Below are positions 7,801 through 39,920 of a stretch of 64,000 nt of DNA, one piece after another (the stretch's first letter is position 1; each line of letters opens with the position of its first letter). The stretch is from an uncultured Gammaproteobacteria bacterium (GTDB lineage: Bacteria; Patescibacteriota; Microgenomatia; Daviesbacterales; UBA10151), in contig CAZCNP010000001.1 of assembly GCA_964500725.1 (NCBI GenBank), forward strand, positions 321,520 to 385,519. The letters are read 5' to 3'. A program made the translations under genes and the position numbers. The notes beneath the pieces were generated by a model, which saw only the letters and a program-made list of their open reading frames with translations, was not told the DNA's origin and made no database searches.

Positions 7801-10344
7801 ACCTCTACCATGCAGAATCTGGTAAGCGATCTGTCTAAAGCTCAACTTTCTGATACTGCCAAAAATCAAATCAGCAAAAATTTAGCCCAAAGCTCTGTTG
7901 AACAAAACCTCCTGTTGCAAAAACTCCAAGCTTTGGCGGGAGCCGAACAAGATACTCCTATCAGCGCTGCAGTTTCAGCCACTATCTTAGGTGTAGATAA
8001 AGCAGCAGATATTGGCGGTGAGCCTCCTATTCCTGCTGATGTAAAAGAAAAAATTGAAGCCTTGCCAGAGAAAATGATCTCTGATGGTGACAAGAAAAAA
8101 CTTTTGGAGATGAAATCCCGGGTAGAAGCCAGACTCACTTTAGGAGGCTTGATAGCAAATGGCGCTTTAACACAAACTGATACTAATTTTCTAAATGAAG
8201 ATTTTGACAAGGTAGACCAAAATACCAAGATTAAGGTAGAAGAACTCAAAAAACTAGAAGAGATTGCAACTGCAACTGAAAGCAAGGATAAACTTGATGA
8301 AAAAATCAAAAAAAATGAAGATGTGGCCCAAAAATTACAAGAATTTGAAAAAACTTTTGAAGTTGGCCAGGAAGTTCCTGTGGAGATTAGACCTTATGTT
8401 AGACTCACCAGAATCAATGAGGTAACCCAGACTATCAGGCCTGACCTAGTCAGACTTAATGAGTTCCAAAACCGCAAAGATATACAGCTGGCTGTGGCTA
8501 CTTTACAAGAAGAGTTTAAACCAACAGCTGAAAACTTTGGAAAGATTGAAGAATTCCGAAGAAGAAACCCCTCCTCGCCTCTTCCTCCAGATCTAGCCAG
8601 GGTCGAGGCTCTATCTTACAATTTAGGAGTAAGGAGGGAAGCAGGACCATGTTTTCTACCCACTCCACCTTTTGCACCAAACACTCCTTGTCCAGCAGCT
8701 GGAGCAGCTATCCCTGTTACTTCATACTATAGCTTCGTCACGCTCTATGCACCAGAGGATCCAGGTTCTCTCAACCCTTCCATACCCTCCACTGACAAAG
8801 ATGGCAAACCTTTAGTTTACGGACAAGGGCCAAAACCCGCAAGTCCTGGAGTTTGTCCATCAGACTCTCATTGGATGTATGACAGCGGAGGCTGGTGTAT
8901 GTCCAACAGCGGCAACTATAGTTCATCTTACTCTTACACACCAACTGGCACTGGCGCAGGTTATACTCCTTACAGCTCTTATTACACTGCCCCAGGAGCG
9001 CCTCCAGCAACCTACGGCTATCCTGCAGCAGGAGGTAATTACAACTACTCTTCCTACAGCCCGCCAAGTTATTACGGCACTGCTCCCACTTATTACACCA
9101 CTAACCCTCCTGCTGGTACTGTGCCTGGTTCAGGACCAAAACCTACCTCACCTGGTCAATGTCCATCAGGGTACCATTGGATGAGTGATAGTGGTGGCTG
9201 GTGTATGGCTGATGGACCAACCTATGTACCAAGTGGTTCTTACCAAAGCTCTTATCCTGCAGGCGCTACCACCAGTGAAACTCCACCCTCAGGAGGCTAT
9301 AATTGTGGCAGCCAGCCATATGATCCTGTCACCAAAAGATGTAAAGACGGAGCTTGTCCAGGAGGATTTAATTGGGATGGTAGCAAATGTGTAGCAAGTA
9401 GTCCTTATTATTCCCCTAATTTAACTCAGTCAAGCTGCGGTCCTGGATATTACTGGGATGGTAGAGGTTGTATTCCCACCTATTCCGGAGGAAACAGCAA
9501 CGGAGGAAGTTACTCTAGCAGCGGAGGCGGGTATTCTCCCGGCTCATACCAGTATGGCTGTACTCCAGGATATTATTGGGATGGTAGTAAATGTGTGGCA
9601 GGCAGCAATGAAGGCTCAGGCTGGTCAGATACTGCTGCCCGATCCCAATCCTGGTGTCAACCTCCCTCAAACGGCTGTGGCTCTAACTCTTATTGGGATT
9701 ATGGCAGCTGTTATTGCCGAAGCTCAAGCACTTATTCTGGAGGTAGCGGTCCCTCACCCAGCAATCAATGTCAAGGTCTAAGCTGCGGTGGAGGTGCATG
9801 GTTAGATTACTCAACCTGTAGTTGTAAGTATTCAGGTGGTTCTGGAACTAGTTCTACAGGATCTACCATCACTTGTTATCCTCCTTCTGCAGGTTGTCCA
9901 GGCGGCTGGTATGACTATAGCAGTTGCAGCTGTAAAACCAGCTCCTATAGCACAGGTTCATCAGGCGGGACTTCTGGTGGATCATCTTCAGGCTCTTGCC
10001 CCTCAGGCTCTCATTGGATGAGTGAGAATGGCGGTTACTGTATGTCTGATGCTGAAAGAGATGCTGCTTCCACCGGCGGTTCTTCCGGCGGATCATCCTC
10101 TTCCGGCTCCTGTCCTTCAGGCTACCATTGGATGGATAACAGCTGGTGTATGCAAGATGGCAGCGGTAGCACCTCTACACCCGCACCTACTAGTACCAAC
10201 TCTACACCTACTCCAACCTCTCAACCTGAACAGCAACAGCAAACACCCCAACCTACTTCCCAACCTGAGCAACAGCAACAATCCACCCCCCAACCTGAGC
10301 AACAGCAGTCTACTCCTCAACCTGCATCCTCTCCTTCATCATAA
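4828..10344 (+). CDS. Large secreted protein (1,838 aa): signal peptide, three DUF5667-like helical domains, novel Cys-rich repeat modules, Y/S/G-rich low-complexity region, C-terminal Q/P/T repeats
   Basis: Signal peptide LAVVSLLLVVISVFPQPLFA. Three copies of the FYF[FL]K...F.F.P...LAE helical module (DUF5667-like) at aa ~75, ~430, ~940. Four copies of CPSG[YS]HWM..GGWCM, three of C.PGYYWDG..C, paired CPEG...GCVW...Y.C...QYYSF..KCVA modules. YS-rich stretch SSYSYTPTGTGAGYTPYSSYYTAPG.... Terminal TPQPTSQPEQQQQ x3. Confidence 0.7.
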   Translation: MVSPKKTFLAVVSLLLVVISVFPQPLFASQKQYFDYGPYYSTSQVLGFSFSSLENLPALKVPDNLIPAKASGVLPDSPFYFFEKVAENTQLTFTFDPVKKEQLRVSFAAERLTEAKTLMDQGKTGPASQALNDYSRTLDTLAQNLPAIAQRNDPASQQLLTQVEKVTADQAVAATALSLTSSPAQAENWTEAQNTARQVLDKITESKGESAIPQDLSTSLQQLKEQGLISEEESGKIYSLKNRGEVREELNKLASSGGIPPSELLKLDTSVAKYYPDVQKQEIANWQIVELRSYQSLPQPTEEIIEQLEKWQNQSNIPPSNDIKPYLWYTRASDLAQKVDLSNFTSEQQTEAVKSYPAIAANPTYSPPPSPTPTPSPSPAADNTSPVPSATPLSSAPPASPPPVPVEPYLEETVGALPGQPTYILKQLGEGFSLAFTFDPAEKARLQMQVAERRLAEAEALSSDPKKASLYEATLKNYQQAVNTASTFVKELKDPKIAKQAAERLESQSARHEVVFEKGLLPAPAENPNLISDVINAAEDAMDRSADVLDRPALPPQLASRLGDLKAQGLILEEEAADLVKSATREEARSKIRKLLEAQTFPLADAKKLDEAQSFVNSTDYNQLVEVRKVEELQNLRSVQTDLAQTPTLKSQATNLAQKEAVLTSSFDPALINKEDLAGKENLVKTYEKLSSIPRPINGGQFGSEATPGAKPAATPLPQDAVLTACPEGAVFKQYEGCVWADSGKKLNDYDQYKCEGPRQYYSFAVRKCVAYDSSQGYQQDAQPVCPVGYQWSWQNQSCQTSTGGILPWPSPSAQPEPKDEKEIEERSKSCPEGSSYKPPQGCVWDDDGKSVYDSEQYRCNGRGQYYSFEQGKCVAAPKEGEPYPKDTSPACKEPDTYWNWSQGKCVKTVEAVAATPQAINIDEVRPNFATPGNPFYFLKQAAERVQEFTAFTPEAREQVRASQAKERLAEAIDASKREDETGIKNALSAYTSTMQNLVSDLSKAQLSDTAKNQISKNLAQSSVEQNLLLQKLQALAGAEQDTPISAAVSATILGVDKAADIGGEPPIPADVKEKIEALPEKMISDGDKKKLLEMKSRVEARLTLGGLIANGALTQTDTNFLNEDFDKVDQNTKIKVEELKKLEEIATATESKDKLDEKIKKNEDVAQKLQEFEKTFEVGQEVPVEIRPYVRLTRINEVTQTIRPDLVRLNEFQNRKDIQLAVATLQEEFKPTAENFGKIEEFRRRNPSSPLPPDLARVEALSYNLGVRREAGPCFLPTPPFAPNTPCPAAGAAIPVTSYYSFVTLYAPEDPGSLNPSIPSTDKDGKPLVYGQGPKPASPGVCPSDSHWMYDSGGWCMSNSGNYSSSYSYTPTGTGAGYTPYSSYYTAPGAPPATYGYPAAGGNYNYSSYSPPSYYGTAPTYYTTNPPAGTVPGSGPKPTSPGQCPSGYHWMSDSGGWCMADGPTYVPSGSYQSSYPAGATTSETPPSGGYNCGSQPYDPVTKRCKDGACPGGFNWDGSKCVASSPYYSPNLTQSSCGPGYYWDGRGCIPTYSGGNSNGGSYSSSGGGYSPGSYQYGCTPGYYWDGSKCVAGSNEGSGWSDTAARSQSWCQPPSNGCGSNSYWDYGSCYCRSSSTYSGGSGPSPSNQCQGLSCGGGAWLDYSTCSCKYSGGSGTSSTGSTITCYPPSAGCPGGWYDYSSCSCKTSSYSTGSSGGTSGGSSSGSCPSGSHWMSENGGYCMSDAERDAASTGGSSGGSSSSGSCPSGYHWMDNSWCMQDGSGSTSTPAPTSTNSTPTPTSQPEQQQQTPQPTSQPEQQQQSTPQPEQQQSTPQPASSPSS

Positions 10345-13540: not shown

Positions 13541-13777
13541 ATGGCTGACAAGATATCACTCGAGAGTCTCCCCGATTTATTAACAGTCAAAGAAGTTGCA
13601 GAAATTTTGCGTGTATCTCCCTTAACTATTAAACGCTGGGGCAAAAGAGGAAAACTCCCAGCAATAAGAATTAACTCCAGAGGAGATAGAAGATATAAAA
13701 AAGAGGCTGTTTTATGGTTATTAGGCATCACCCAAAAAACATCTTCATCTGACTCTTCACAAGTAAGTTCTTATTAA
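13541..13777 (+). CDS. Small MerR/excisionase-family helix-turn-helix DNA-binding protein
   Basis: LTVKEVAEILRVSPLTIKRWGKRGKLPAIRINSRGDRRYKKEAV is an excisionase/MerR-type HTH. It is paralogous to the N-terminus of the giant ORF at 16417. Confidence 0.6.
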   Translation: MADKISLESLPDLLTVKEVAEILRVSPLTIKRWGKRGKLPAIRINSRGDRRYKKEAVLWLLGITQKTSSSDSSQVSSY

Positions 13778-16416: not shown

Positions 16417-19400
16417 ATGTTAAAAGTTAATTCGTCCAAAAAATCACTTGTTAAAATTGCCCAAGCCTCCAAGTTATTAGGCGTCCACAAAGATACTTTA
16501 AGAAGATGGGAAAAAGCTGGCAAAATTAAAGTAGTCCGAGACCAAAAAGGAGACAGGCTTTATGATGTTTCTAAACTAATTAACTCAGCTCCTGCTTCTC
16601 AAACCTCCAAGGTGCCTACAACTGAGCAGCTGTTAAAGTCAGCTTCCCAACACGCTCAACAATCCACCTTACAACCTCAGCTACCAGCTTTAGATTACTC
16701 TGCTTTGTTAGATCAAACTATATCAAAGGATAACAAGCAAACAGGCAGAAGGTTTTATTTTATGGCTGCAGGCTTCTTCCTGCTCTTAGTGCTGATAGGC
16801 TTAGGTTATATTAGAGTTTTATCTACTCAATCCAAACCACAAATAATTACTTCTTTGGAAAACAAGATACTGGCAGCTATCACCTCTCAACCTTTAGTTA
16901 AGATAAATGCTGATGTCAAAGTAAGAGGGTCATTATCTGTATCAAACGATATCAATGGGCTGGCGATTGCCACTGATTCAGCAGGCTTTACCTTAACTTC
17001 TGAAAATGGCAAATTAACTGTGGTTGGCGATGCCTTGTTAAACCAAGACTTATCTTCCAGCGGCTCCCCTACTTTTTCTTCTCTAAATTTATCCTCAACC
17101 AGCAATCAGCTAGTCTTTCAATCAGGCGGACCAGCAGGCACCTTAACCTGGACTCCAACTGCTGCAAGAACTATTACCCTGCCAGACACCACTACTACTT
17201 TAGTTGGAAAAGATACCACCGATACTTTTACTAACAAATCCATTTCTGGGTCTTCTAACACTTTTACCAATATCCCCAACTCTGCTCTAACAAATAAAAA
17301 AATAACTGTTACAGCTGGAACTAATTTAACCGGCGGAGGAGATGTAGAACTTGGTTCATCAATTACTTTGAGTTTAAAAGAATCCCCTACTTTCTCCGGT
17401 GTAGTCTTACTTTCTGATGGCACAGCTGCTGCCCCAGGCTTAGCTTTCAGCAATGATACTAATACAGGTTTATATAGAATTGGTACAGATAAAATTGCCC
17501 TGATCACAGGAGGATTAGCTACCTCAGGGATTACCATTGATTCTTCTGGCAATTTAGGAATAGCCAATAATTCTCCAGCATATAAATTAGATGTAACAGG
17601 CACTGCCAATATTACCAGCAATACTACTATTGGTGGAACTCTGGGAGTAACAGGTATCTCTACTTTTTCATCAACTATGGGGGTGTCGTCAGGATTATCT
17701 GTAGGTAGTACCTATTCTTCTCTGTCACCACCAACCAGCGGTGCCATTATAGAAGGAAATGTCGGTATCGGAACCAGCGCCCCTGGTTCTTTTGCGTTAA
17801 ATGTAAGCGGCAATACTTACCTTAACGGGAGGCTAGAAACTTCAGGTAATGTTGGTATAGCTAATTCTGCTCCATCTTTTACTTTGGATGTAGTAGGTAC
17901 TGGCAGATTTTCTTCTTTACTTAATGTCTTAGGTAATATAGGTATTGGTACCTCTGGTGCAGCAGGATCAGCCCTGCAGGTTAATGGTGGAGGATTATTT
18001 GGCTGGGGAACAACTTCTACTGCTTTATCTTCTGGAGCTATCTTAGGAGTTAATGGAAATGTAGGAGTTGGGACTACTTCCCCTCTGGCTAACCTGCATG
18101 TTGTTGGACAATGTGTTGTTGGGGAAACAAAACTTAAAAGAAGAAGGAGAAAGAAGGGCAAAAATGGTGAGTGGTCAGATGAATATGAAGATGTAGAGAT
18201 TAAGGATATCAAGGAAGGGGATGAGATACTAACACTTGATGAAAGTACCGGCAGATTTGTACCTGCTAAAGTTAACGCCCTCAAAGATATGGGGATCAAA
18301 GAAATCTTTGAGTTGACCACTGCTACCGGAAAAACCATCAGGACCACCGGCAACCATCCCTACCTGGCACTTGGCGTAGAACACCTAGCCCTCACTAGTC
18401 ATGATTCGGCATCAGGTGTTACCGGTGCTTCCTTGCTCAACTCTACCATTTTATCTCTCACAAGAGGGAACAAAGACCACCGGATCGCCGTCTTTATCGA
18501 TGCGGCAAACCTTGAAAAATCCGTTGAGAAAATAGGCTTCAAAGTCCACTATAAAAACCTTAAACGCCTAATTGCTTCTTTAGGTTCTCTTGACTATATT
18601 GGTTATTTTACAGTAGCTACTTCTTCAGAACAGAATGTGACTCTTCGCCAGTCTCTGCTGCGCTTTGGTTATAACGTGGTTACCAAACCTCTAAAACTTA
18701 TTAAAACCGCCAAAGGCCTGAAACCCAAGGCTGATGTTGATGTAGAGATTACCACCGAAGTAATGGAACGCAAAGATGACTTTGATCTGATGATTCTCTT
18801 TTCAGGAGACAGCGATTTTTACTATCCAATTAAGCTCTTACAAGAAAAGTATGGAAAGAAAGTAATAGTTATCTCTACCAGATACAGTGTCTCCAGGGAA
18901 CTACTCAAAGTTGCTGACCGTTACATTGATATTGCCAAGCTTAAAGGGGAAATTGCCAGAGGGCAAAAAGAAAGCCCGTCTTTTGCAACGGGCGACTCAT
19001 CTTTCGACGAGAGCAATCTTACGACTGCACTTCAAACTATATCAGATATCCTGCCTTTTGTCAAGAATTTGGGCAAATGGACTAAGGTGTCAGGGCTAAA
19101 GACCGGCCAGATGATAGCTGCAGTAGGGAAAGACAACCAACCTCAGTTTGAAAAAATTGCCTCTATTAAGAAGGTTAAACGCGAGCAGGTCTTTGATATA
19201 GAAGTAGAAGGCACCCATAACTTTGTAGGCAATGATATAGTAGCTCATAATACTTTTATTACAGGTAATGTTGGGATTGGGGCTGCTTTTACCACCTCAG
19301 GTATAGTTACCCCCACTAATGGTTTAGCTGTCCAGGGTAATGTAGGTATAGGAACTTCTACCACCAATGCTGCCTTAACAGTAATAGGTGGGATAACAAC

Positions 19401-22400
19401 TACTGGCAATGTTGGTATTTCAAACTCTGCCCCATCATTTACTTTGGATGTAGTAGGCACTGGCAGATTTTCTTCTGATCTAACTGTTTCTGGAACTACC
19501 TTCTCTGCCTCATCAGCTGCTGGATCATTTGATTCCTTAACAGTAGGAGGAGGTTATGGATCAACAGGAGTATCAATCTCCAATGCTGGAGTAATCCAGG
19601 CTAATGGAGCTTTAACTGCTGATGGACTGATTACTGGTTCAACAGGTTTAACTATTACTGGAGGTGTAGTTTCTTTGAATGCTTCCTCAAATAATGCTGT
19701 CAATATAAACACAGGATCATCTACAGGTGCTTTAACATTAGGAGGAGGATCTGGAACTGTGGAAGTGGCTTCCACCAGCTGGGATATTTCTACTTTAGGA
19801 GCTATCTCTGGTGTCACTGGTATTACTACCTCAGGAGGATATACCCAATCTGGTACTTCCGAGAACCTCTTTACTGGTAATGTGGGTATAGGAGTATCTG
19901 CTACAGGAGCTAAACTTTCTTTAAATGGCGGAGCATATATCTGGCCAATTACAACTAATATTGCTGCTCCTAATAACGGATTAGCTGTTTATGGTAGAGT
20001 GGGCATTGGTACTACCTCCCCCGCAACCAATCTCCACTTGATTGATACTTCTGGCAACACTGAGATAGCCAGGTTTACCTCCACGACCAACTCTAAGGAC
20101 TCCTATGTTCAGTTCAATACTACTTCTTCCACTTCTTCTATGGGATTGCAACTTTCTAGCACTGCTGCTAACTCAGTAGGTATGAGAATTGATGGCTCAG
20201 GAAACTTATCTTTCCATACAGGTGCAGCCAGCAGCTCAGTTATGGCTAATAATAATAAAAAGATGACTATTGATACCAATGGGAATGTGGGTATAGGCAG
20301 CAGTGCCAGCAATGGTATTAGCGCAATTCAACTTTTCCAGGTTAATGGAACCTCCTCCTCCCCATTTGTAGTTACTTCAGCTGGTAATGTTGGTATAGCT
20401 AATTCTGCCCCATCTTTTACTTTGGATGTAGTAGGTACTGGCAGGTTTTCTTCTTTACTGAATGTTTTAGGAAATGTGGGGATAGGAACATCAGGAGTAG
20501 CAGGATCAGCCCTGCAGGTTAATGGTGGAGGATTATTTGGCTGGGGAACAACTTCTACTGCTTTATCTTCTGGAGCTATCTTAGGAGTTAATGGAAATGT
20601 AGGAGTTGGGACTACTTCCCCTCTGGCTAACCTGCATGTTGTTGGACAATGTGTTGTTGGGGAAACAAAACTGAAAAGAAGAAGGAGGAAAAAAGGCAAA
20701 AATGGCAAGTGGATTGATGAATGGGAAGAGGTGGAAATCAAGGATATTAAAGAAGGCGATGAGATACTTTCCTTAAACGAGAGTACTGGTGAGTTTATTC
20801 CCAGAAAAGTTAAGGGGCTTTTGGGTATGGGAATGCAGGAGGTGTATGAAATCTTAACCGAAGAAGGTAAAACCATCCAAACCACCAAAAACCATCCTTA
20901 CCTGGTAGACCTCTCTGAAACAGCAGGTACAGCGCTTCATTTTATTCAAAAAGCCACTTTTGAATATAGCGAGAGATTAGGAAAAGAGTTTTATATTGAT
21001 CATCTTGCAGGCAAGAAAATAAAATCAAAAGCATTAAATGACACTATCAACTTTACTCATACAGGCTGGAACCACTTTACAGAAAAAAGCAGATCAATCA
21101 ATGAATTGATTACCAGATTTTTTGCTCTTCCCTATGCTATTACAGTTCTATCTCAAGCCAGCAAAGTAAAAATTCATGAGGAAAGAAAGAAACCAGATAT
21201 GGTAGTGGAATACTGGATTTTTGAAGAAATTATCGAGTATGCGTTAATCCGGGTAGTAATTTCTGCTGTGAATCATGGCCCTAAGTTTTTCTTGTCTTGT
21301 TCCTGGCTGGGGACACAGGCAGAAGGAGGAATTTTAGCCAACAAAAAAGAGCTGTCTCTCTCGCAGGCAGTTACTCCTGGTCGACGTCGGGAACTGGTTA
21401 TCCCTCAGCTCTTTACTAAGCTGTTTATACCAAAAAATGTCAAAAATGTCAAGTGGGTTGAGGTTAGAAACTTAACAGTTGGGGCTAGTATCGCCACTAT
21501 TTCAGGTTGGGAAAAGATAGTTTCCATCAAAAATATGGGTAGAAAATCTACTTTTGATATAGAGGTAGCAGGGACTCATAATTTTCTAGGCAATAATATA
21601 GTTGCCCATAATACTTTCATTACAGGTAATGTTGGTATAGGAGCTGCTTTTACCACCTCAGGTATAGTTACCCCTGCTGATGGTTTAGCAGTCCAGGGCA
21701 ATGTAGGTATAGGGACAACTACTACCAATGCTGCTTTAACAGTGATAGGAGGAATAACCAGTACTGGTAATGTGGGTATTGCTAACTCTGCTCCATCATA
21801 TACTTTGGATGTAATAGGTACTGGCAGATTCTCTTCTACTCTGCTAGCTAATACCTTCTCCTCCTCAGAGGTAACCATCACTGGTGGAACCATCAATAAC
21901 ACCAGTATTGGAGCAACTGTAACCTCAACTGGCGCTTTTACTACTCTTTCTGCCTCTGGAGCTTTGGCTGCCAATGGTGGGATTACCTTTGATAATGCTA
22001 CTGATACATTAGGAGCTTTTACTGCTGCTGGAACTATCAATATGAATGGCAATATTATTACCAATATAGGGGCAACAGATACCAGCTTTGCCACCACTGG
22101 AGCCTTAGCCATTACCTTAGATGGAGCTGATGCCAGTGGCGCTCTCTCTGTTTCCAATGCCTCTCAAACCTCAGATATCTTTGTGGCCAAAGATAACACT
22201 ACTGCTGTGTTTACCATTAAAGATGGAGGCAATGTTGGGATAGGCTTTACCTCTCCTTCAGCTTTGCTTCATCTCAGACAAACAGGATCAGGTAATGCTT
22301 TCTATGTAGAAGATCAGGCAGATGATACTTCTTCTCCTTTTGTGATCAATGCTGATGGTAATGTTGGTATAGCTAACTCTGCTCCATCATATACCTTGGA

Positions 22401-25400
22401 TGTAGTAGGAACTGGAAGAATATCTTCTGATCTGGTAGTAAATGGCACTACTTTCTCTGCCTCATCAGCTGCTGGATCATTTGATTCCTTAACAGTAGGA
22501 GGAGGTTATGGATCAACAGGAGTATCAATCTCCAATGCTGGAGTAATCCAGGCTAATGGAGCTTTAACTGCTGATGGACTGATTACTGGTTCAACAGGTT
22601 TAACTATTACTGGAGGTGTAGTTTCTTTGAATGCTTCCTCAAATAATGCTGTCAATATAAACACAGGATCATCTACAGGTGCTTTAACATTAGGAGGAGG
22701 ATCTGGAACTGTGGAAGTGGCTTCCACCAGCTGGGATATTTCTACTTTAGGAGCTATCTCTGGTGTCACTGGTATTACTACCTCAGGAGGATATACCCAA
22801 TCTGGTACTTCCGAGAACCTCTTTACTGGTAATGTGGGTATAGGAGTATCTGCTACAGGAGCTAAACTAGCCATTAATGGTGGAGCATATATCTGGCCTA
22901 CTACCACAGCTATCTCTGCTCCCAATGATGGGCTGGCTGTATATGGTAATGTTGGTATAGGAACTACTACACCTTTAGCTAACTTACATGTTGTAGGACA
23001 ATGTGTAACTGGAGATACCAGACTGAGAAGAAGGAAGAAAAAGAAGAATGGTGAGTGGTCAGATGAATATGAAGATATAGAGATTAAAGATATCCAAGCA
23101 GGAGACCAGATACTGTCCTTAAATGAAAAGACAGGGCAATTTGAACCTCACACTGTTCTCGCCCTAAAAGATATGGGAATCCACCAAACTTTTGAGTTGA
23201 TTACTGCCTCCAGGAAATCAATCAGAACAACAGCTAATCATCCATACCTTATTAAACAACAAAAAACCCGCCTTTCAGCGAGTTCTTTGACTGAGTTTAA
23301 TGCTGATGCACTATACTCGGGTCTGAGTATCAATACTCTACCACAAAATACCAATAATGTCAAGTCTATGACTGCACGAAGTGGAACTAATGTGGACCTG
23401 ACGGGAATTGAACCCGCAAACCCAGATTTCTCAGACCCGAGCGTACACCAGTACCAGGCCCACATAAAATTATTATCTCATAAATGGATTAAAGTTTCAG
23501 GGCTTAAACCAGGCATGGAAATAGCTACTATTAATGGATGGGAAAAAATAGCAGCTATTAAAAAATTTGCCAGAGAACAGGTTTTTGATATAGAAGTTGA
23601 AGGAACACATAACTTTGTAGGCAATGATATAGTTGCCCATAATACTTTTATTACAGGTAATGTTGGGATTGGGGCTGCTTTTACCACCTCAGGTATAGTT
23701 ACCCCCACTAATGGATTAGCAGTCCAGGGTAATGTTGGTATTGGGACAACTACTACTACTAATGCCTTAACTGTTGCAGGTAATGTTAATACTACTGGTA
23801 ATTTAGGAGTTGGAACATCAGCTACAGGAGGATATAACTTAACAGTACAGGGTACTACCAGTATTACTGGAGCTGCCACTTTTGGATCTACTGGTACCTT
23901 TGCCTCTACCTTAACAGCTTCCAATGGCTTAACTTTAACAACTGGAGCTTTAAATCTAACCTCTACCTCAGGACAGGCTAATCTAGCTCTAACCAATAAC
24001 ACCAACACCTTCACTGTTAATGGATTATTTGGGATAGACACTACCAATAACAGAGTTGGTATTGGAACCACTGCCCCCTCTGCAGCAAGGCTTGAAGTTA
24101 TTGGAGCAGGATCCGTGACAGGACGCACCTTCTGGGTTACTGGATCAAATCTTTCCTCAGGCCTGGCAGTACTGGATAATGGTAACGTGGGTATTGGTAT
24201 TAGTGGACCAACTGCCAGTTTGGATATTGTGGGAACCTCATATACTACTGCCTTAGATCAATCTCAAACAAGTACTAATGGATTTTATAGCTCCAGTATA
24301 CAAGCGCAATCTTTCACCCCTTCTGTTACCGGCCCTTTCATGTATGCTGATATAAAAATCCAATCAGGAGGAGGAGCTCCAGGCAATACCGCTCTTACCC
24401 TCCGCTCAGGAGAAGATGTTTCAGGTACAGTTTTGGCTACTTCAACCAGTGTTGCCAGTTTAGGCAGTGGTTGGTATCGGATTACTTTTGACAATACCCC
24501 TACTTTAACTGCCGGACAGCAATACACCATCCGCTATGATAGAACAAGTACAAACGACTGGGGAATACAAGGTGCTAATCCCTATTCTGGAGGAAGATTC
24601 TATGGCTTAGGAGCTTGGAAAACCGATGATGGTGCCTTTAAAACTTATGTCTATACAACAGATACTACACTGGCAGATGCAGTTAAAATGGCTAATAATT
24701 ACACCTCGGCAAACAGCGGGGCTGTTTTAAACATTACCACAGCTGGAATAGCTGGAAGCTATGCCTTAAGAGTTAACGATGACGGTACATTTACCGATAC
24801 CTCCCCCTTTGTTATTGATACTACTGGTAATGTTGGTATAGCTAACTCTGCTCCATCATATACCTTGGATGTAGTAGGAACTGGAAGAATATCTTCTGAT
24901 CTGGTAGTAAATGGCACTACTTTCTCTGCCTCATCAGCTGCTGGATCATTTGATTCCTTAACAGTAGGAGGAGGTTATGGATCAACAGGAGTATCAATCT
25001 CCAATGCTGGAGTAATCCAGGCTAATGGAGCTTTAACTGCTGATGGACTGATTACTGGTTCAACAGGTTTAACTATTACTGGAGGTGTAGTTTCTTTGAA
25101 TGCTTCCTCAAATAATGCTGTCAATATAAACACAGGATCATCTACAGGTGCTTTAACATTAGGAGGAGGATCTGGAACTGTGGAAGTGGCTTCCACCAGC
25201 TGGGATATTTCTACTTTAGGAGCTATCTCTGGTGTGACTACTTTGAATATGTCAGGCGCCATCACTGCTGCTACTGCCTCCAATACCATCAATGGTTTAA
25301 TTATTAACTCTGGAGCATTATCTGGTGTCACTGGTATTACTACCTCAGGAGGATATACCCAATCTGGTACTTCCGAGAACCTCTTTACTGGTAATGTGGG

Positions 25401-28400
25401 TATAGGAGTATCTGCTACAGGAGCTAAACTTTCTTTAAATGGCGGAGCATATATCTGGCCAATTACAACTAATATTGCTGCTCCTGATAATGGCTTGGCT
25501 GTATATGGCAATGTGGGTATTGGTACTACTACTACCAATGCTGCTTTAACAGTGATAGGAGGAATAACCAGTACTGGTAATGTGGGTATTGCTAACTCTG
25601 CTCCATCATATACTTTGGATGTAATAGGTACTGGCAGATTCTCTTCTACTCTGCTAGCTAATACCTTCTCATCATCAGATGTAACAATCACAGGAGGAAC
25701 TATTAATGACACTACTATTGGAGCAACTATTACCTCAACTGGAGCTTTTACCACTTTAACTTCATCAGGTAATACCACCTTGGGTACAGGAGCATCATCT
25801 GTCAATACCATTGGTTCAACCACTACTCCAGGAACTCTAACCCTGCATGGAGCCACTACTTTGGACAATACCTTCACTGTTTCAGGAGCCAATCTCACTT
25901 CTTTGGGTGGGAACTTATCTTTTACTGGCACTGCTCCATCTTTAACTTCTGGATCATCAGTACTAGGAATATTTGCTGGAGGTAATGTAGGAATTGGGAC
26001 TACTTCTGCCATGGCCTCCTCTTTTAATGTTAATGGCAATCAGGTTATTGGTTCATCTTTCATTGGAGGTGCTGCCCCCACTAATGGATTAGCAGTCCAG
26101 GGTAATGTTGGTATTGGGACAACTACTACTACTAATGCCTTAACTGTTGCAGGTAATGTTAATACTACTGGTAATTTAGGAGTTGGAACATCAGCTACAG
26201 GAGGATATAACTTAACAGTACAGGGTACTACCAGTATTACTGGAGCTGCCACTTTTGGATCTACTGGTACCTTTGCCTCTACCTTAACAGCTTCCAATGG
26301 CTTAACTTTAACAACTGGAGCTTTAAATCTAACCTCTACCTCAGGACAGGCTAATCTAGCTCTAACCAATAACACCAACACCTTCACTGTTAATGGATTA
26401 TTTGGGATAGACACTACCAATAACAGAGTTGGTATTGGAACCACTGCCCCCTCTGCAGCAAGGCTTGAAGTTATTGGAGCAGGATCCGTGACAGGACGCA
26501 CCTTCTGGGTTACTGGATCAAATCTTTCCTCAGGCCTGGCAGTACTGGATAATGGTAACGTGGGTATTGGTATTAGTGGACCAACTGCCAGTTTGGATAT
26601 TGTGGGAACCTCATATACTACTGCCTTAGATCAATCTCAAACAAGTACTAATGGATTTTATAGCTCCAGTATACAAGCGCAATCTTTCACCCCTTCTGTT
26701 ACCGGCCCTTTCATGTATGCTGATATAAAAATCCAATCAGGAGGAGGAGCTCCAGGCAATACCGCTCTTACCCTCCGCTCAGGAGAAGATGTTTCAGGTA
26801 CAGTTTTGGCTACTTCAACCAGTGTTGCCAGTTTAGGCAGTGGTTGGTATCGGATTACTTTTGACAATACCCCTACTTTAACTGCCGGACAGCAATACAC
26901 CATCCGCTATGATAGAACAAGTACAAACGACTGGGGAATACAAGGTGCTAATCCCTATTCTGGAGGAAGATTCTATGGCTTAGGAGCTTGGAAAACCGAT
27001 GATGGTGCCTTTAAAACTTATGTCTATACAACAGATACTACACTGGCAGATGCAGTTAAAATGGCTAATAATTACACCTCGGCAAACAGCGGGGCTGTTT
27101 TAAACATTACCACAGCTGGAATAGCTGGAAGCTATGCCTTAAGAGTTAACGATGACGGTACATTTACCGATACCTCCCCCTTTGTTATTGATACTACTGG
27201 TAATGTTGGTATAGCTAACTCTGCTCCATCATATACCTTGGATGTAGTAGGAACTGGAAGAATATCTTCTAATCTAACAATAGGTGGATCATTAACTTCT
27301 ACTGGTAACCTACTTCCTTCAGCTGATGATACTTATGATTTAGGTTCTTCTTCTGCCAGATGGCAAGATCTCTATGTTGGCCCCACATCCTTAAATCTAG
27401 TTTGTACTGCAGGAGAATGTGGTACAGCCAGAACTTGGAATATTGGTGTTCAGGAATCTTCTGGAGTAGCAGCTGCCCAAGGTAATTTAAGGATTGGGCT
27501 TTCTTCCAGTAGAGACTTTCTCAATATTAACACCTCTGGAAATTTAGGAATTGGGACCAGTAATCCAGGAAACCTTTTGACTGTTTCAGGAGGCAATATT
27601 GAAATTTCCAGCGCTTCTCCACAGTTGATTTGGACAGACACCACAGCTGGTCAGGATGCTTTTGGAGCTATAGCCAACAGCGATTACTTAGAATTTATGT
27701 CCGGAGGCACCAGAAATATTTTAGTCTTGGCTGGTGCAACCCACGCAAATGCAGGTAATGTGGGGATTGGAACAGCAACTCCTGCCTTTAAACTGGATGT
27801 TAATGGTGGCATCAATTCAGGTACATCTGCTGGATATTCTGTTGGATCGTGGCTTGGTATGTCTTATGCAGCAAATGGAGCAAGTTATAACTTAAACTTA
27901 GGTGGTATTAATGCCTCTACCTGGGTGGGACTAGGTCTTTTCACTTCTGGCACAGAAAAGGTCAGAATCGATACAAATGGCGCACTATATTCAGGCAATA
28001 TTGGTACCTCTATTGCTAATGCTAATTTATTTGTCTCAGGGGCTACCTCTGGAAATGTTGGTATCGGCACTACAACTCCAAATACCAGACTGGATGTTAT
28101 AGGTAATGGGACTTATGCTGCTGATTTCATGAATGGAAGTGTGGGAATTGGAACTAGCAGCCCTCAAGCTACCCTTCATGTAGCTTCTGCCTTTACTGCA
28201 GTTTCAGATACTGGCAGCACTGGTGGTAACTTAATTATTCAAGGAACTGATACTACCAGGGATCCAACTCATGGGGCTGCTTTAAGCTTCTATCTTCCAG
28301 CTACTACAGCAGGAGGAAATCCTTATGTTCAAGCCAGAATTATAGGAGCACCAGATAATAGTTCTAATAATAATACTTCTGGAAGATTAATTTTCCAGAC

Positions 28401-31400
28401 TAGAAATAATACCAGCGCCTCTTTCAATAATGCCATGATGATAGATTCAAATGGAAATGTTGGCATTGGCACAACTGGGCCTAATGCTAAACTGGATGTG
28501 ATTGGTGGAATCAGGGTTACTAATACGAGCAGCACCAATGCTCTTGTGTTTGGTCTTGCAAATAGCAATCATTACCTCAAGCTCTACGCAGATACAGACA
28601 CTGGTATCAGCTACATTAAGAACTTATCTAACTATGATATTAGACTGGGACATGCAAGCAGTGATGATGTAATAATCAACTCTGCTGGTAATGTAGGTAT
28701 AGCAAACTCTGCTCCAAGTTATACCCTGGATGTTATAGGTACAGGCAGATTCTCTTCTGACCTTACTGTTGGAGGAAACTTAACTGTCTCTGGCACTACT
28801 TTTTCTGCCTCAGGAGCTGCAGGATCTTTTGATTCTTTAACAGTTGGTGGAGGTTATGGATCAACTGGAGTAACTATTTCCAATGCTGGGGTAATCCAAG
28901 CCAATGGGACTTTAACTGTTGATTCTACCTCTACTTTAACAGGAGCTGTCAGTATTGGAGCTTCCAATGCTGCTTTAACATTTACTGGTACTACTCCATC
29001 AATCACTTCTGGTTCCTCTGTCTTTGGAATCTTTGCTGGGGGGAATGTGGGAATAGGGACCACCTCTACCATGGGGTCAACTTTGAATGTTTCAGGTAAT
29101 CAGGTTATTGGTTCATCTTTCATTGGTGGAGCTGCTCCACAAAATGGATTAGGGATTCAGGGTAATGTTGGTATAGGCACTACTACTGCTACCTCTTATA
29201 ATCTTCAAGTTGTAGGGACTATTGGTTCAACCAGTGGTATTACTATAGATGCTGGAGCAGGCAGCTCTAATGCAACTCTTACTCTCGCAGGAAGAAATTC
29301 TGGGACAGCCCATTCTGCTTCTGTTTTCTCCAATTTTAACGGAGGCCTTAATCTAAAACCAGCCACAACTGGCAGTGATATTAATGTCTATCTTTGGAAT
29401 AATGCCACAGCTTCTACCTCCAATACCATGCCTTTAAACTTTGATTTAAATGCTACCACAGATGGTAAAACTACTTTTGCTCAAATCATGGGTCTTTCTA
29501 CTGATATTACCTCGGGAGCTGCCTCTGGAGCTTTATCTTTCTACACCAAAAATACTGGATCCTTGAAGGAAAGAATGAGGATAGATCTAAACGGTAACGT
29601 TGGTATTGGTACTTCTGCTCCATTTACTGCATTAACAGGAGCCTTCCAAGTAGCACCAGTTTCTGCCCCTGCTGCTTTCTTTGTAGGAAGTACAGGTAAT
29701 GTTGGGATAGGGACTACTGCCCCTACTAACAACTTATCAGTTATAGGCAATGTTAATACCACTGGTAATTTGGGAGTAGGGACATCTGCCACAGGTGGAT
29801 ATAACCTAACAGTAAATGGAACTGCTAGAATCTCAGGAAATATAGGTATAGGTGGTACTGCTACCTTCAGTAATCCAACTATCTTTAACAATGGTATTAC
29901 CAATAATGGAGTCTTTTCTCAGACAGGACAATTCCTAGCAGGAGATGGATCAGCTGCAGCTCCTTCGTATTCCTTCACCAGTTCCACTGGAGCAGGCCTC
30001 TGGTCACCATCTTCTAACAATATTGCCCTAACTACTGGAACTCCTACTACAACTGGTACCATTAAAGGAATCTCTGTTGATTCCTCTGGTAATGTAGGAA
30101 TTGGGACTTCTAATCCAGCAGGGCTTTTGGACATTGTTAAATTAGGAAATGATAACCCAATCTATATAGATCGATATAGTACAAACAATGGCCATGTTCC
30201 CACAATCCAATTCCGCACCAGCCAACAAAACAGTCTAGGCAACACTGCCACCACTATTAGCAACATGTATGGAAGACTTGAATGGTATGGGAATGATGGT
30301 AACGGCTTCCAAAGGGCTGCCTATATTCAAGCACAGCAGGGTTCAAGTACTGCAACTGATGCTGACTTAACAATATCTACAGGTGCAAGCGGAACAATTT
30401 TCATGGAAGGGAGTTCTGGCAATGTTGGTATTAACAATGCTGCTCCTGTGGCTAAATTACATTTAACAGGAGCTGGGATTACCACTGGAGTTAACTTCCT
30501 CTCCACAGGAGCTGGTGGAGGTGGAGGTCTAGTAGGTATTTTAGATAATGGCAATGTTGGAATAGGGACAACTGCACCAGGACAGAAACTGGATGTGGTT
30601 GGTACTATTAAATTTGGTTCCGGGGGTTATTACTCTTTGGGCACAGATCCTACCCGACTGGAAATAAGAAATGCCGCCAACGATTCCATCGCTCTTTATA
30701 CGAACGGTACGCGCGGCTTACTTATGACTGGGTCTCAAAAAGTCACAGTTGGAGGAGATATTTCTGGTGGTAATAGTTTATTCAATGTTCAAGGTGGTAC
30801 AGCAATTGGGTCAAGTTATTACCTGGCGACAGCTCCTACCAACGGCCTATTAGTTGAAGGTAATGTTGGTATTGGTACCACCAGCCCGATCACTAAATTA
30901 GATGTTAGCGGTGGAGTTGGAGACACTTCATCTACTGATCCTCAATTCTCTCTTTCCAGATGGTCTTCAACTGGTAATAACGAAGTAGTCAAATTTAGAT
31001 TAATGGAGCAAGCTTCAGGTGGCACTAACTTTGGGGTATTTACCATCCAAACCAAGAGTACAGCCTCTGCAGCAGAAAGCGATAGTTACTACACTAATGC
31101 TTTCTCAATCACTGCAGCTGGAAATGTTGGTATTGGTACCACTGGACCAGCTGTTAAGCTTGATGTTGTTGGTGGAGGAAACTATGTTGACGGTTTGAGA
31201 TTAAGATATTCTGCCTTAACTAACGGATGGAACTTTGCTCAGGGGACTGGCGGACAACTTTATTTTGGTTATGGCTCTGCTGCTTCACCAACAACCATGA
31301 TGCTGATAGATACCAATGGCAATGTTGGTATTAATAATGCTGCTCCTGTGGCTAAACTTCATTTAACTGGAGCAGGAACAACTACTGGGGTTAATTTCCT

Positions 31401-34371: not shown

Positions 34372-34859
34372 ACACAGATCATAAAAAAAGCATGATTCTC
34401 ACGGATAAAAAACAGATCAACACCGATCAGTCTACATCCGCTTTAAATCCGCCTAAATCCTCTTCAGGATTATTATTTGCCGACTTAACTTACAGGATTC
34501 GGGGAGCAATATTCACAGTTTACAACCAGCTAGGGTTTGGTCACAAAGAACAAGTTTACCAAAAAGCTTTAGAAAAAGAATTAATAGAAACTAAACTACC
34601 TTTTAAAAGAGAAGTTAGTTTAAATGTGAAATATAAAGATGAAGTGATAGGAAGCTACAGACCTGATTTTGTTGTAGATGATAAAGTAATTGTTGAGTTA
34701 AAAGCTGTTGAGTTTATGCCTAAATCTTTTGAAACCCAGTTAATCCATTATTTAAAAACTACTGGTTATCAATTAGGACTATTGGTTAACTTTGGTTCTA
34801 CTAAGTTAGTTATCAGAAGATTGCTATGGACAGGTCAGAAGGGAGATTCTCACAAATGA
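34350..34859 (+). CDS. GxxExxY-family protein (PD-(D/E)xK-like small nuclease-fold protein); probable start at M15 (34392)
   Basis: LTYRIRGAIFTVYNQLGFGHKEQVYQKALEKEL...YRPDFVVDDKVIVELKA contains the GxxExxY signature and a D...E.K triad. The ORF-track start overlaps the 3' end of the giant ORF. Confidence 0.6.
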   Translation: MDYKHTMNTDHKKSMILTDKKQINTDQSTSALNPPKSSSGLLFADLTYRIRGAIFTVYNQLGFGHKEQVYQKALEKELIETKLPFKREVSLNVKYKDEVIGSYRPDFVVDDKVIVELKAVEFMPKSFETQLIHYLKTTGYQLGLLVNFGSTKLVIRRLLWTGQKGDSHK

Positions 34860-37800
34860 AAAGCAGCCTAACACGGATTTCTTACTATCTGCGTAAATCA
34901 GTTCTCAAATCAGCGTTTATCCTGTCTGCCATACTGGTAGCAGGAGGAGGAATTTTTCTCTATGGTTACTTCCATTCTAAGTCTGCTTCTGCTGCCTGGT
35001 TTGATGAAGGCTGGGCATACAGAAAGGCTGTGACTGTGACTGTTACTTCCTCCTCTTCTGATATTACCAACCTGGAAACTTTAATTACCGCAGATACCTC
35101 TGCCTCCGGCAGATTTCAATCTTCCTGCCAGGATTTAAGATTTACCAACACTAATGGTAAACTTCTTCCTTACTACATAGATTCAGGCTGTACTACCTCC
35201 TCCACCAAAATCTGGATTATGCTGGATTTAGTTCCTAAAAACACCACCACTTATACCCTGTATATGTATTATGGCAATCCCACAGCCTCAGCTGCTTCTG
35301 ATTCCACTAAATTTAGACTATTTAACGGCTTGAAGGGGTATTGGAAGATGAATGATAACGTTTCCGGAGATGCAAAAACTTTAACAGACGCCTCAGTCAA
35401 TGCTAACTCAGGCACCACCTATTATGGAGCCAACACCACTGGAATGGATTGTACCATCACTGCCAAATATGATAAAGGTTGTACTCTGGATGGGACAGAT
35501 GACTATGTCAGTTTAGGAAATCCAGCAGCCCTGCAAATCTCTACTGATATCACCATCAATATTTGGGTTAAACCCACCTCAGGATCATATATTATCTCAA
35601 GGCGTGGCTGGAACATCCTTCTGGGTCAACCGCCAGCATTTGAAACTAGAAACGCCGGCGATACAGGCTGGGATACAAATGCCACCGCCACCTCTACACT
35701 CCCCACTGATTCCTGGTCCATGGTTACTGCTGTCTATAGCACAACAGATCAAAAAAAGTATATCTATATCAATGGGGTACAAGAAGGAAGTGCTGCTAAA
35801 ACAGACGGCAGTATGGGAGATACTACTGCCAGAAATATCTATCTCGGCCAATACATAGTCGGTTCCCAATGGTATAACGGTTCAGAAGACGAGCTTAGGA
35901 TTTATAACCGGGCTCTTTCACAATCAGAAATCACCCAGCTTTATCAAAACCCAGGCAATATTGCCACCTATGTTGACGGTATCAGCAAACCTACCACCTC
36001 CTTTGCCACAGAAGAACAAGGCCCAGGGCCAATAGGTTACTGGAAATTTGATGATGGGCAAGGATCAACTGCCCAGGATTCTACCTCCAGCAACTATGAT
36101 GGAACCATCACTGGAGCAACCTGGCAGACAGAAGATAAATGTATCTCTTCAAAATGTTTATATCTTACCTCAGCTACAGATAGGGTAACTGCTGGCTCAA
36201 GCAATAATTTAAATATCACCTCGGGTGATGCTACTTACCAAACCTGGGTAAGACTTACCGCTGCCACCTTTTTGGATGGCTCTACCAACTGGACTTTATT
36301 TAATAACGAAAGCTACCAGGCTTCTGGAATGACTATTAGAATTGATGGCGGAACTGGAAAATTAATGTACAGATCCAGTCAAGCAGCAGCCTCTACCACC
36401 TTTACCACTACTTCAGCCCCTATTGCTTCTAATAATACCTGGTATCACATAACTGCTGTAAAATCTGGCACCACAATATCTTTCTATGTCAATGGCAGGC
36501 TTATTCAATCAGGAACTATCACCAACCCTGTAACCACTGCCAATGCTTTTACCATTGGTTCAGCTGTAGGTGGATCACAGTCAGTCAGAGGTTTTATGGA
36601 TGATGCTAAAGTCTATAACTTTGCCAGAACTCCCGCACAGATCTTGCAGGATTATGCCTCAGGTTTGGCTAATGCAGGAACTAAACAAGGCTCCTCGGCG
36701 GTACTCGGAGCAAGTACTGAAAAATGGCTGTCTGATGGGTTAGTTGGATACTGGAAAATGGATGAAAGTTCTGGAAATGCTGCTGATTCTTCCGGCAACG
36801 CAACAACTTTAACTAACAACAATATCACCACTTTTGCTGCTGGTAAGTTTGGGAATGGATCATCATATAATGGAACAAGCCAGTACTTCAGCACTGCCTC
36901 AACAATTTCCGGTGTTCAGTCAATAGCTTTCTGGGTATATCCCACTTCCACTACAGATAATTACATTAATCTTAATGGGTCAACTTACATAACTTCATCA
37001 TCCGGTACTGTCTCGGGAACCGGAATAACCTCCCCCAGCATTTATGTCAACGGAACCCTTAATGGCACAATTACTGCCAGTGCCTGGAATCATGTAGTAA
37101 TCACCACCGCCACATCTGTATCTGCATCTGTATTTGAAATTGGGCGGGCAAATAGCTCTTATCTTTCCAACACCAGCAAAATGGATGAGATCCGCGTCTA
37201 TAATCGTGCTTTATCATCCGCGGAAATCTCTTCATTATATAACTGGGCTCCTGGACCATCTGGTTATTGGAACTTTGAAGAAAGAACAGGGACTTCTACT
37301 TATGATACTTCAGGAGGAGGAAACACAGGCACCATCACCAATTCTACCTGGAATACCGGCAAGTTTGGAGCAGGGCTGTCTTTTGATGGGAACGGTGATT
37401 TTGTAAATATCCCCCAAACTACTACCTTAGACACCCCCACAGGTACCATTTCTATGTGGGCTAACTTTAATGATCTAACAGATAATGGGTATTTATGGAG
37501 CCAGAATGTTGATGAATGGAACATTTATAATAATGGCACCCAGCTAAAAACCTATTACGATAGTACTCTCGTTCATAGCTATACCCCAACATTTACAAAT
37601 AACCAGTGGGTTCACCTTTCCTTTACCTTTACTAAAGGAGGCACCTGTTACTTTTATGTTAATGGGGTTCAAGTAGCCAGTAATACCTGTTCCTCTACTG
37701 CCCCTACCCTATCAAACATTCATATAGGAGCAATGAGCAGCAACAACACATATTCTTTTAATGGAAAACTTGATGATGTTAAAGTCTACAATTATCAAAG

Positions 37801-39877: not shown

Positions 39878-39920
39878 TATGGTTCCTCCTTGGATGATGG
39901 CAGGCTGAGTTTACGAAGCC

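Follow-up and report, generated by a model that had tools for sequence, protein, structure and literature searches.

Exact intragenic repeats and three predicted inteins in a giant fibre-like gene assigned to Candidatus Daviesbacteria

Here we analysed a 64,000-nucleotide (nt) stretch of contig CAZCNP010000001.1 (positions 321,520 to 385,519, assembly GCA_964500725.1), called the window below. It carries a giant open reading frame (ORF) on the forward strand at 16417..34371 (17,955 nt, 5,984 codons), defined by ORF call, Pfam and a motif list, which contains all of the exact repeats described here. As judged from its sequence, the product of 5,984 amino acids (aa) is a tail-fibre-like, membrane-anchored surface protein, with anchoring and export predicted. 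An original prediction had placed long exact repeats inside one fibre-like ORF and read them as a recombinational mosaic that could also be mis-assembled. The 56 'GNVGIG'-type fibre motifs (form 'GNVGIGTTxPxxxLxVxG') and the C-terminal Peptidase_S74 motif agree with a fibre, and every repeat falls inside 16417-34371. Taken together, it is probable that this is a fibre gene of Daviesbacteria that is a recombination mosaic and holds a trio of splicing inteins at a repeated motif. Two of the three inteins lie within the interval first described, 19501-27270, and were not mentioned there.

Repeated 31-mers cover 4,769 nt of the 64-kb window, all within the giant ORF, and exact repeats of at least 31 nt fill 17,872-27,270. 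Four modules, termed P, Q, R and S, are present two to three times each in the gene:

17845..18111, + strand: P1 module, the N-extein flank of intein 1, ending ...GNVGVGTTSPLANLHVVGQ; 94.8% identical to P2, 100% over the last 150 nt
19399..20015, + strand: Q1 module, with exact tract 19501-19916
20383..20649, + strand: P2 module, the N-extein flank of intein 2; tract 20499-20672 spans the extein/intein junction
21673..21945, + strand: S1 module, on the C-extein side of intein 2, with exact tract 21718-21860
22356..22967, + strand: Q2 module, continuing into the N-extein of intein 3, with tracts 22356-22766 and 22453-22868
23702..24897, + strand: R1, the first 1,196-nt copy, which begins 58 nt after intein 3; exact match to R2
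24820..25536, + strand: Q3 module, longer than Q1 and Q2 by 93 nt (31 codons) near 25240-25311, with no intein after it
25483..25755, + strand: S2 module; the junction from Q3 to S2 (25420-25620) is chimeric
26075..27270, + strand: R2, the second 1,196-nt copy; exact match to R1; an independent contig, L169, begins near its right border (27241)

Base-by-base extension returned the 1,196-nt repeat as it had been described, with 23702-24897 equal to 26075-27270 and the copies 2,373 nt apart. The adjoining base differs at both ends. A tandem duplication of a 2,373-nt unit is ruled out, since only the first 1,196 nt are common to both copies and the flanks are unrelated in register. The module of about 410 nt reported at 19501, 22453 and 24826 does occur three times, but not as one identical 410-mer; instead, the pairwise exact tracts fall in two registers. 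Q1 and Q2 share 416 nt (19501-19916 = 22453-22868), while Q2 and Q3 share 411 nt (22356-22766 = 24825-25235) with the register moved by 97 nt, and the core common to all three copies is 314 nt (19501-19814 = 22453-22766 = 24922-25235). Outside of the exact tracts the Q copies are 71-80% identical, and over the whole module they are 88-95% identical. Likewise, the shorter module reported at 21740 and 25540 corresponds to a real 143-nt exact tract that holds both positions (21718-21860 = 25528-25670, offset 3,810, within a 273-nt match of 90%), although the two positions themselves are 10 nt out of register. Additional tracts, absent from the original prediction, are 17961-18134 = 20499-20672 (174 nt), 19246-19322 = 23638-23714 (77 nt), and 25321-25485, which equals part of 19807-19971 (165 nt). 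All offsets between exact copies are multiples of 3. Three of the 12 repeat families in the interval (D4, D8 and D11) are intein ends with their conserved target-site flanks and not fibre cassettes.

The borders of these tracts are abrupt. Q1 and Q2 differ by 47 mismatches in 612 nt; the leading 97 nt hold 20 of them and the closing 99 nt hold 27, while the 416 nt in between are identical. When mismatches were placed at random, runs this long appeared in 0 of 100,000 permutations for Q1-Q2, Q1-Q3, S1-S2 and P1-P2, and because all repeated 31-mers are also confined to one ORF, chance is excluded. Exact tracts of 143-1,196 nt adjoin sequence of the same modules that differs by 20-29%, synonymous sites included. 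The borders fall within or beside conserved motif DNA of about 60-100 nt that is present in 9-19 copies (families D1 and D2). The junction between Q3 and S2 is a chimera, in which the left side is 100% identical to Q1 and the right side is 100% identical to sequence downstream of intein 2, with the crossover in a GLAVxGNVGIGTT motif. Exact tracts with motif-associated borders, together with this chimeric junction, bear out the mosaic that had been proposed. The nearest relative, contig L028, has 80-88% nucleotide identity to the window and carries the same modules in another order with different inserts. Because L028 likewise has two P modules, the P duplication is older than the split between L028 and the window. 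P1 and P2 each share 85-91% identity with the L028 copies, and between those two copies it is 85%.

The order and number of these modules are provisional. In Logan short-read assemblies this clone is found at 100.000% identity in at least 12 sequencing runs. The sample series with the clone includes runs SRR12113384, SRR12113385, SRR12113422, SRR12113424, SRR12113429-433, SRR4343428 and SRR4343430. Five contigs entering from the upstream glycosyltransferase end at 17895, 17860, 17796, 17164 and 16802, and the first repeated 31-mer lies at 17872-17906. From the downstream side, contig L169 matches 27241-39997 with no mismatch, its start lying 30 nt (k-1) inside the end of R2. Since contigs stop by 17,895 and resume at 27,241, the un-bridged stretch coincides with the repeat-bearing stretch, and these 9.3 kb (17.9-27.24 kb) are precisely what short reads cannot order. 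The mis-assembly risk that had been flagged is therefore real in that short-read contigs break at both edges of the repeats, though the present arrangement was not shown to be wrong. De Bruijn traversals of the region gave 28 full paths at k=141, a number that fell to 4 at k=176-315 and to a single path from k=413; beyond that, ambiguity is confined to how many copies of the R unit there are and persists up to 1,196 nt.

We consider it unlikely that the identity, copy number or order of the modules at 17.9-27.3 kb was made by the assembler or by polishing, whether through a wrong path in the repeat graph, through co-existing strain variants threaded together, or through near-identical copies homogenised by short-read polishing. 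In favour of such an artefact, no independent contig crosses the region, the graph allows many traversals at low k with the R copy number ambiguous below 1,196 nt, and assembled relatives seldom show such repeats (3 of 48). However, every independent piece matches the window at 100.000% identity, over lengths of up to 12,918 nt, and the junction between R2 and unique sequence at 27270/27271 is among the parts so matched. A repeat node in the graph needs two real contexts per side, so R and Q should each have at least two contexts in the reads, and polishing cannot yield 0% divergence directly beside 20-29%. The frame-keeping offsets and the open 18-kb ORF also argue against an artefact, but this is a weak point, as in-frame repeats would keep a wrong path open too. 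Related genes show the same difficulty. Intein matches lie at most 300 nt from a contig end in 24 of 76 related loci, compared with 10.6 expected, and among orthologue-like loci the ORF reaches the end of the locus in 13 of 13, with the contig itself ending there in 9-10 of the 13. Giant candidate phyla radiation (CPR) fibre genes thus appear to be systematically truncated in public metagenome-assembled genomes (MAGs), and their copy numbers are untrustworthy without long reads. Separately, five Logan contigs of different runs all end at 12943, a point 29 nt inside the L7/L12 gene. Within the window, this place contains no repeated 31-mer, and the cause may be a polymorphism between strains or a repeat in another part of the genome.

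Three Intein_splicing domains (Pfam E=5.4e-46) are located in the first half of the giant protein:

18112..19251, + strand: intein 1, aa 566-945 (380 aa), with C1, TTGNH, THNF, VAHN and T+1; Pfam Intein_splicing and NCBIfam intein_Nterm and intein_Cterm above cutoff
18481-18933, + strand: NYN (PIN-like nuclease) domain nested in intein 1; Pfam NYN, with acidic motifs FIDAAN, KADVDVEI and SGDSD
20650..21612, + strand: intein 2, aa 1412-1732 (321 aa); Pfam and NCBIfam
23002..23643, + strand: intein 3, aa 2196-2409 (214 aa), a mini-intein whose linker is about 70 aa long and shows no recognisable nested domain; Pfam and NCBIfam

The NCBIfam N- and C-terminal models match all three, with the intein_Nterm match of intein 2 (23.6 bits) just under the cutoff of 24.5. 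Each intein has clear-cut boundaries and contains the blocks C1, TT(G/K/A)NH, THNF and VAHN followed by Thr+1, and the insertion reads ...LHVVGQ/C...HN/T, where the slash marks the junction. Only 3 of the 56 motifs are of the variant PLANLHVVGQ, and each of these three carries an intein. Sequence matches of intein 1 in the PDB are DnaB inteins, and its insert matches NYN/LabA-like 2qip. The AlphaFold2 model of intein 3 has a predicted local distance difference test score (pLDDT) above 90 in the splicing domain, and its best Foldseek matches are the Npu and Ssp DnaB inteins at a template-modelling (TM) score of 0.85 (4o1r, 1mi8) and gp41-1 at 0.88. By sequence, fold and invariant nucleophile, the three appear to be class-1-type inteins. 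The catalytic residues and the native-like spacing suggest that they would excise after translation and that the exteins would be ligated. The predicted ligated junction, LHVVGQ^TFITGNVGIG, would have the same spacing as the intein-free repeat pair LTVIGGITSTGNVGIA; one ligated extein peptide is predicted to read ...LHVVGQTFITGNVGIG... and further ones ...TSPLANLHVVGQTFITGNVGIGAAF....

The window inteins are 67-72% identical to one another, and intein 1 reaches 81% identity with the L028 intein and 77% with one from Daviesbacteria. The intragenic duplication of a single intein is ruled out by this mutual identity and by the closer match of intein 1 to inteins of other genomes. Third-position G+C is 0.32-0.41 in the inteins and 0.27 in the exteins of the giant gene, consistent with a separate history for the inteins. 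The insert of intein 2 (20905-21480) has a sub-threshold match (E=1.9e-5) to large polyvalent protein-associated domain 3 (LPD3), and a similar insert is present in the intein of the relative P0283. After block A, each intein has a basic loop (e.g. KLKRRRRKKGKNGEW), at 18133-18180, 20671-20718 and 23023-23064. Across the family, the median is 7 Lys or Arg (K/R) in residues 6-30, and 51 of 102 members have a run of at least 4 K/R. This loop could be a DNA-binding element, or it could pose a problem for translocation.

The inteins belong to a family, inserted at the same motif, whose members came from 82 related loci. These loci lie in public MAGs and metagenome contigs and for the most part bear a Patescibacteria label. 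A word-indexed protein search with intein 1 returned 127 relatives, mostly on 1-4-kb contigs and with named sources mostly from Patescibacteria. A GTDB scan of one genome per species, which did not include the source genome, gave 322 intein stretches. A phmmer search of 1.84 billion cluster representatives gave 167 matches at E<=1e-30, rising to 667 at E<=1e-10; the host proteins reach 6,089 aa. Paired inteins in the giant fibre loci of the fetched relatives number 118, and the conserved blocks align across 11 and 102 sequences. The consensus at the N-junction (n=87) is G-N-V-G-I-G-T-T-x-P-x-x-x-L-H-V-x-G(96%)-Q(68%) followed by C(100%), and at the C-junction (n=106) it is H-N(100%) followed by T(104/104)-Y-I-x-G-N-V-G-I-G. 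Among 2.9 million viral contigs, the family is essentially absent, with 7 weak matches.

Many relatives carry several inteins, with six in L045 (a 5,329-aa open frame), five in L008 and four in L036. To our knowledge, the highest intein count reported per gene is about four, which six would exceed. L045, L090 and L091 are one multi-intein gene in three independent assemblies, with the ORF complete in L045. Because their junctions agree at aa 786, 1639, 2078, 3028 and 3578, the multi-intein arrangement is reproducible where copies have diverged. In multi-intein loci, the nearest neighbour of an intein lies in another genome in 49 of 59 cases and in the same locus in 10 of 59, a count that includes the duplicate pair L090/L091. 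The inteins are thus not recent intragenic copies. In L028, the P module is empty once (...LANLHVVGQ/SSLVARF) and occupied once, so that empty and occupied paralogous sites coexist, as expected of a mobile intein, in a comparison that covers paralogous sites only.

The nested domains of the family vary. In the Pfam census, all 102 inteins have Intein_splicing, 13 have NYN, 4 have DUF3800 and 1 is LPD3-like; a LAGLIDADG or HNH homing endonuclease was found in 0 of the 102 at E<=0.001. The L028 intein (5118-6215) has a DUF3800-like insert. Its splicing domain is 81% identical to that of the NYN-bearing intein 1, which indicates that nested domains are swapped within a close intein lineage. In a literature search on inteins together with NYN, DUF3800, Patescibacteria/CPR and tail fibres, which did not cover subscription-only literature, we found no description of CPR-fibre or NYN-containing inteins, and a comprehensive classification of PIN-like domains does not mention inteins.

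With the canonical class-1 inteins, such as Ssp and Npu DnaB, the fibre inteins share the HINT fold, blocks A, B, F and G, Cys1, TxxH, His-Asn and the +1 nucleophile. They also share a variable domain at the usual endonuclease position and presence or absence at paralogous sites. According to PMC2814812, inteins insert into the most conserved sequence of the host protein; the fibre inteins would keep this rule in a new sense, as their site is a conserved motif that is multiplied within the gene. In contrast to canonical inteins, their host is a repetitive, hypervariable surface fibre and not a replication, repair or ATPase enzyme, and each gene holds dozens of copies of the structural motif that they target, with 3 inteins here and up to 6 in relatives. 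The poly-basic loop after block A and the lack of LAGLIDADG and HNH among the 102 also set them apart.

We also weighed whether the three Hint domains could be autoproteolytic modules of the bacterial intein-like (BIL) or pretoxin-HINT (PT-HINT) kind, which would cut the precursor or release the nested domains as surface effectors. The setting is suggestive, in that the surface protein hosting them is hypervariable and not conserved, which is the context given for BIL domains in PMC7765530, where the Hint domain of an A-type BIL sits in the variable region of a non-conserved secreted protein and cleaves rather than ligates. This likeness also holds for the BIL domains of Amitai et al. 2003, as summarised in PMC7765530 and PMC5874633. 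In addition, Pfam PT-HINT matches 49 of the 102 family members, more weakly than Intein_splicing, the nested domains are NYN, DUF3800 and LPD3-like rather than homing endonucleases, and the BIL structures 6y75 and 2lwy are among the fold matches. On the other side, all intein blocks are present and Thr+1 is invariant (104/104), whereas A-type BILs typically have no C'-flanking nucleophile (PMC7765530, its ref. 69). The best matches in both sequence and fold are DnaB mini-inteins, ligation of the exteins would restore the native repeat spacing, and the domains bear nested inserts at one precisely conserved site, while BILs occur at diverse positions. Like the pretoxin-HINT domain (PF07591), the Hint domains here lie in a giant surface protein with nuclease-like domains. 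However, PT-HINT precedes a C-terminal toxin and has no C-terminal splicing block, whereas the nuclease-like domain of the fibre is nested in a complete intein in mid-fibre. A pretoxin-HINT polymorphic toxin was rejected accordingly: the Hint domains are internal, complete and carry inserts, and the C-terminus holds the S74 motif and a coiled coil. Overall, an autoproteolytic role in place of splicing seems rather doubtful.

As for the origin of the exact tracts, the differences between Q1 and Q2 in the flanks comprise 25 in codons with an unchanged amino acid and 22 in changed codons, with none within the tracts. Because the flanks carry synonymous differences and the tracts none, protein-level selection cannot explain the identity of the tracts. 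It is scarcely credible that these are old duplications held identical by purifying selection with no recent DNA exchange: the modules do encode conserved fibre repeats and a folded domain, but there are zero synonymous differences across 1,196 and 416 nt directly beside some 200 nt that hold both kinds, and P1 equals P2 over 174 nt despite a duplication that predates the split from L028, whose copies are 85% identical. The pattern instead suggests that in-frame modules recently exchanged sequence by ectopic gene conversion or by unequal recombination. The conserved motif DNA of about 60-100 nt could act as the homology anchor for exchange between paralogous modules. Such exchange would lead to concerted evolution of some cassettes and a reshuffled order of others, and so to varied fibre length and binding cassettes. 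As history, recombination is well supported; as ongoing variation, it is unproven. A near-identical strain was not found in the metagenome scan with the unique N-terminus, where the best orthologue has 69% aa identity.

Several observations weigh against the combined picture of a recombining, intein-bearing fibre gene. No independent assembly found spans 17.9-27.24 kb to confirm the order and copy number there, and part of the mosaic could be a wrong path or a merge of variants. Recombination is read from the pattern in one strain, and no second strain that varies in copy number or order was found. A repeat of at least 150 nt at 99% identity or more is present in only 3 of 48 related loci of at least 8 kb, so perfect tracts are unusual among assembled relatives, though short-read assemblies would systematically lose them. 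Finally, the basic loop would be awkward for Sec translocation if splicing took place outside of the cell.

The inteins themselves may have driven the mosaic, although we regard this as improbable. Here, non-canonical nested nucleases such as NYN and the DUF3800-like domain would cut unoccupied or paralogous copies of the 'GNVGIG...LHVxGQ' motif, and repair from another copy would amount to 'intragenic homing'. The intein would spread within and between fibre genes, and hundreds of flanking extein bases would be co-converted along with it, leaving perfect tracts and reshuffled cassettes. Some observations fit such a process without proving it. For each perfect tract, one copy or more lies no further than 250 nt from an intein. 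Two tracts span intein/extein junctions (17961-18134 for inteins 1 and 2, and 19246-19322 for inteins 1 and 3), and the intein-free stretch at 24.8-27.3 kb is built from sequences that match the flanks of inteins 1, 2 and 3 exactly. The clustering of tracts near inteins carries no statistical weight, as the tracts cover about half of 17.9-27.3 kb and the relatives offer just three such repeats.

The remaining features of the giant protein are consistent with an anchored fibre:

16453..16566, + strand: MerR/excisionase-type helix-turn-helix (HTH), N-terminal, aa 13-50; Pfam MerR E=2.9e-11, 43.4 bits, cutoff 28.2
16753..16812, + strand: the sole hydrophobic segment, FYFMAAGFFLLLVLIGLGYI, aa 113-132, with a K/R-rich stretch before it; read from sequence
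32464..32622, + strand: Peptidase_S74 motif (endosialidase-type intramolecular chaperone); PF13884 E=8.3e-7, 29.6 bits, cutoff 22

By the positive-inside rule, the hydrophobic segment would be an N-in signal anchor, so that about 5,850 aa would lie outside of the cell, and the MerR-type HTH is predicted to be cytoplasmic. Downstream of the S74 motif are a coiled coil and then a C-terminal domain without assigned function. The R cassette (399 aa) consists of fibre repeats and a β-sandwich domain (about nt 24298-24570 in R1). Its AlphaFold2 model has an overall pLDDT of 57, with a core of about 90 residues at 85-90. This core gives weak Foldseek matches to CBM6 modules and to phage baseplate and fibre domains, the cassette has a weak, sub-threshold match to DUF4082 in Pfam, and its homologues are all remote (at most 57% identity over 22% of the query). 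From a core of this size and low Foldseek scores, the sandwich may tentatively be described as like a carbohydrate-binding module (CBM). Other CPR genomes also hold orthologue-like genes, whose products combine an N-terminal HTH with an anchor and a fibre. The giant relatives P0161 (integrase SAM-like), P0176 and P0283 (HTH) have differing small domains of DNA-binding type N-terminal to the anchor, and thus a cytoplasmic nucleic-acid-binding head on an extracellular fibre recurs among these and the giant protein. Within the giant gene, seven antisense ORFs of 153-354 aa lie on the minus strand at 17118-26501 (e.g. 24975-26039), and these are most likely shadow ORFs of stop-poor repetitive sequence.

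In having a C-terminal S74 motif after a repetitive fibre, the giant protein is of the Peptidase_S74 fibre type. It shares this motif with phage tail-fibre and tailspike S74 proteins, the 'GNVGIGTTxP...L.V.G' repeats with relatives carrying Peptidase_S74 (PF13884), and the weak similarity of the β-sandwich cassette with phage baseplate/fibre domains and CBM6. Unlike phage fibres, the giant gene is located in a cellular genome beside ribosomal protein genes and encodes 5,984 aa with an N-terminal HTH and anchor. A second point of comparison is offered by the periscope proteins (Rib, SasG, Aap) and by pilE/pilS, msp2 and vlsE, in which near-identical repeats recombine and alter length or cassettes. 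The giant gene resembles these in its near-identical intragenic DNA repeats with synonymous identity. It differs from them in that the repeats are dispersed, non-tandem and of several kinds, and no silent donor cassettes lie outside of the gene. A periscope-type tandem array does not describe the gene, in which R and its spacer are not duplicated as a unit.

The genes around the giant ORF are cellular, including L10, L7/L12, glycosyltransferases and giant proteins with DUF5667 and Laminin_G_3, and ribosomal protein L10 of the window is 100% identical to a Candidatus Daviesbacteria bacterium protein. On this sequence evidence we assign the host of the giant fibre gene to Candidatus Daviesbacteria (CPR/Patescibacteria). 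A phage origin of the region or of the intein family is not supported, given the cellular neighbours and the scarcity of matches in viral contigs. Between L7/L12 and the glycosyltransferase cluster, a free-standing 78-aa gene at 13541-13777 (+) encodes a MerR/excisionase-type HTH, the same kind of domain as at the N-terminus of the giant protein. Upstream, 4828-10344 encodes a 1,838-aa giant protein with three DUF5667 domains, and G+C is raised over this gene (0.45-0.47 at 6-10 kb, compared with 0.36-0.40 around it). Together with a 649-aa trypsin-like protein, it forms a cluster of large envelope proteins. Downstream, a PDDEXK_3 nuclease-superfamily gene (34368-34859) overlaps the stop of the giant gene by 4 nt, and its own end is overlapped by the gene for a 1,673-aa protein with 7 Laminin_G_3 stretches (34856-39877). 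A HicB/HicA toxin-antitoxin pair follows at about 39954-40431.

According to PMC5874633 and PMC2814812, inteins occupy conserved sites of replication, repair and other housekeeping enzymes. Here, a whole intein family occupies a structural motif that is repeated in giant, hypervariable proteins on the surface of ultra-small episymbiotic bacteria, with 3-6 inteins per gene and with the canonical homing endonuclease replaced by NYN and other domains. The persistence of the inteins may stem from their target, which is both the best conserved and the most multiplied sequence in otherwise hypervariable fibre genes. As a pool, the more than 100 related mini- and maxi-inteins with Cys1/Thr+1, which tolerate extein contexts that are simple and repetitive, could find application. 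The system also offers a natural setting in which to study how inteins persist without an essential host site, whether the PIN-like NYN domain serves as a homing nuclease, and how an exported protein of 6,000 aa copes with several inteins. If the intein-driven origin of the mosaic is true, this would be a previously undescribed intein lineage that is specialised on a repeated structural motif and doubles as a device for diversifying CPR fibres.

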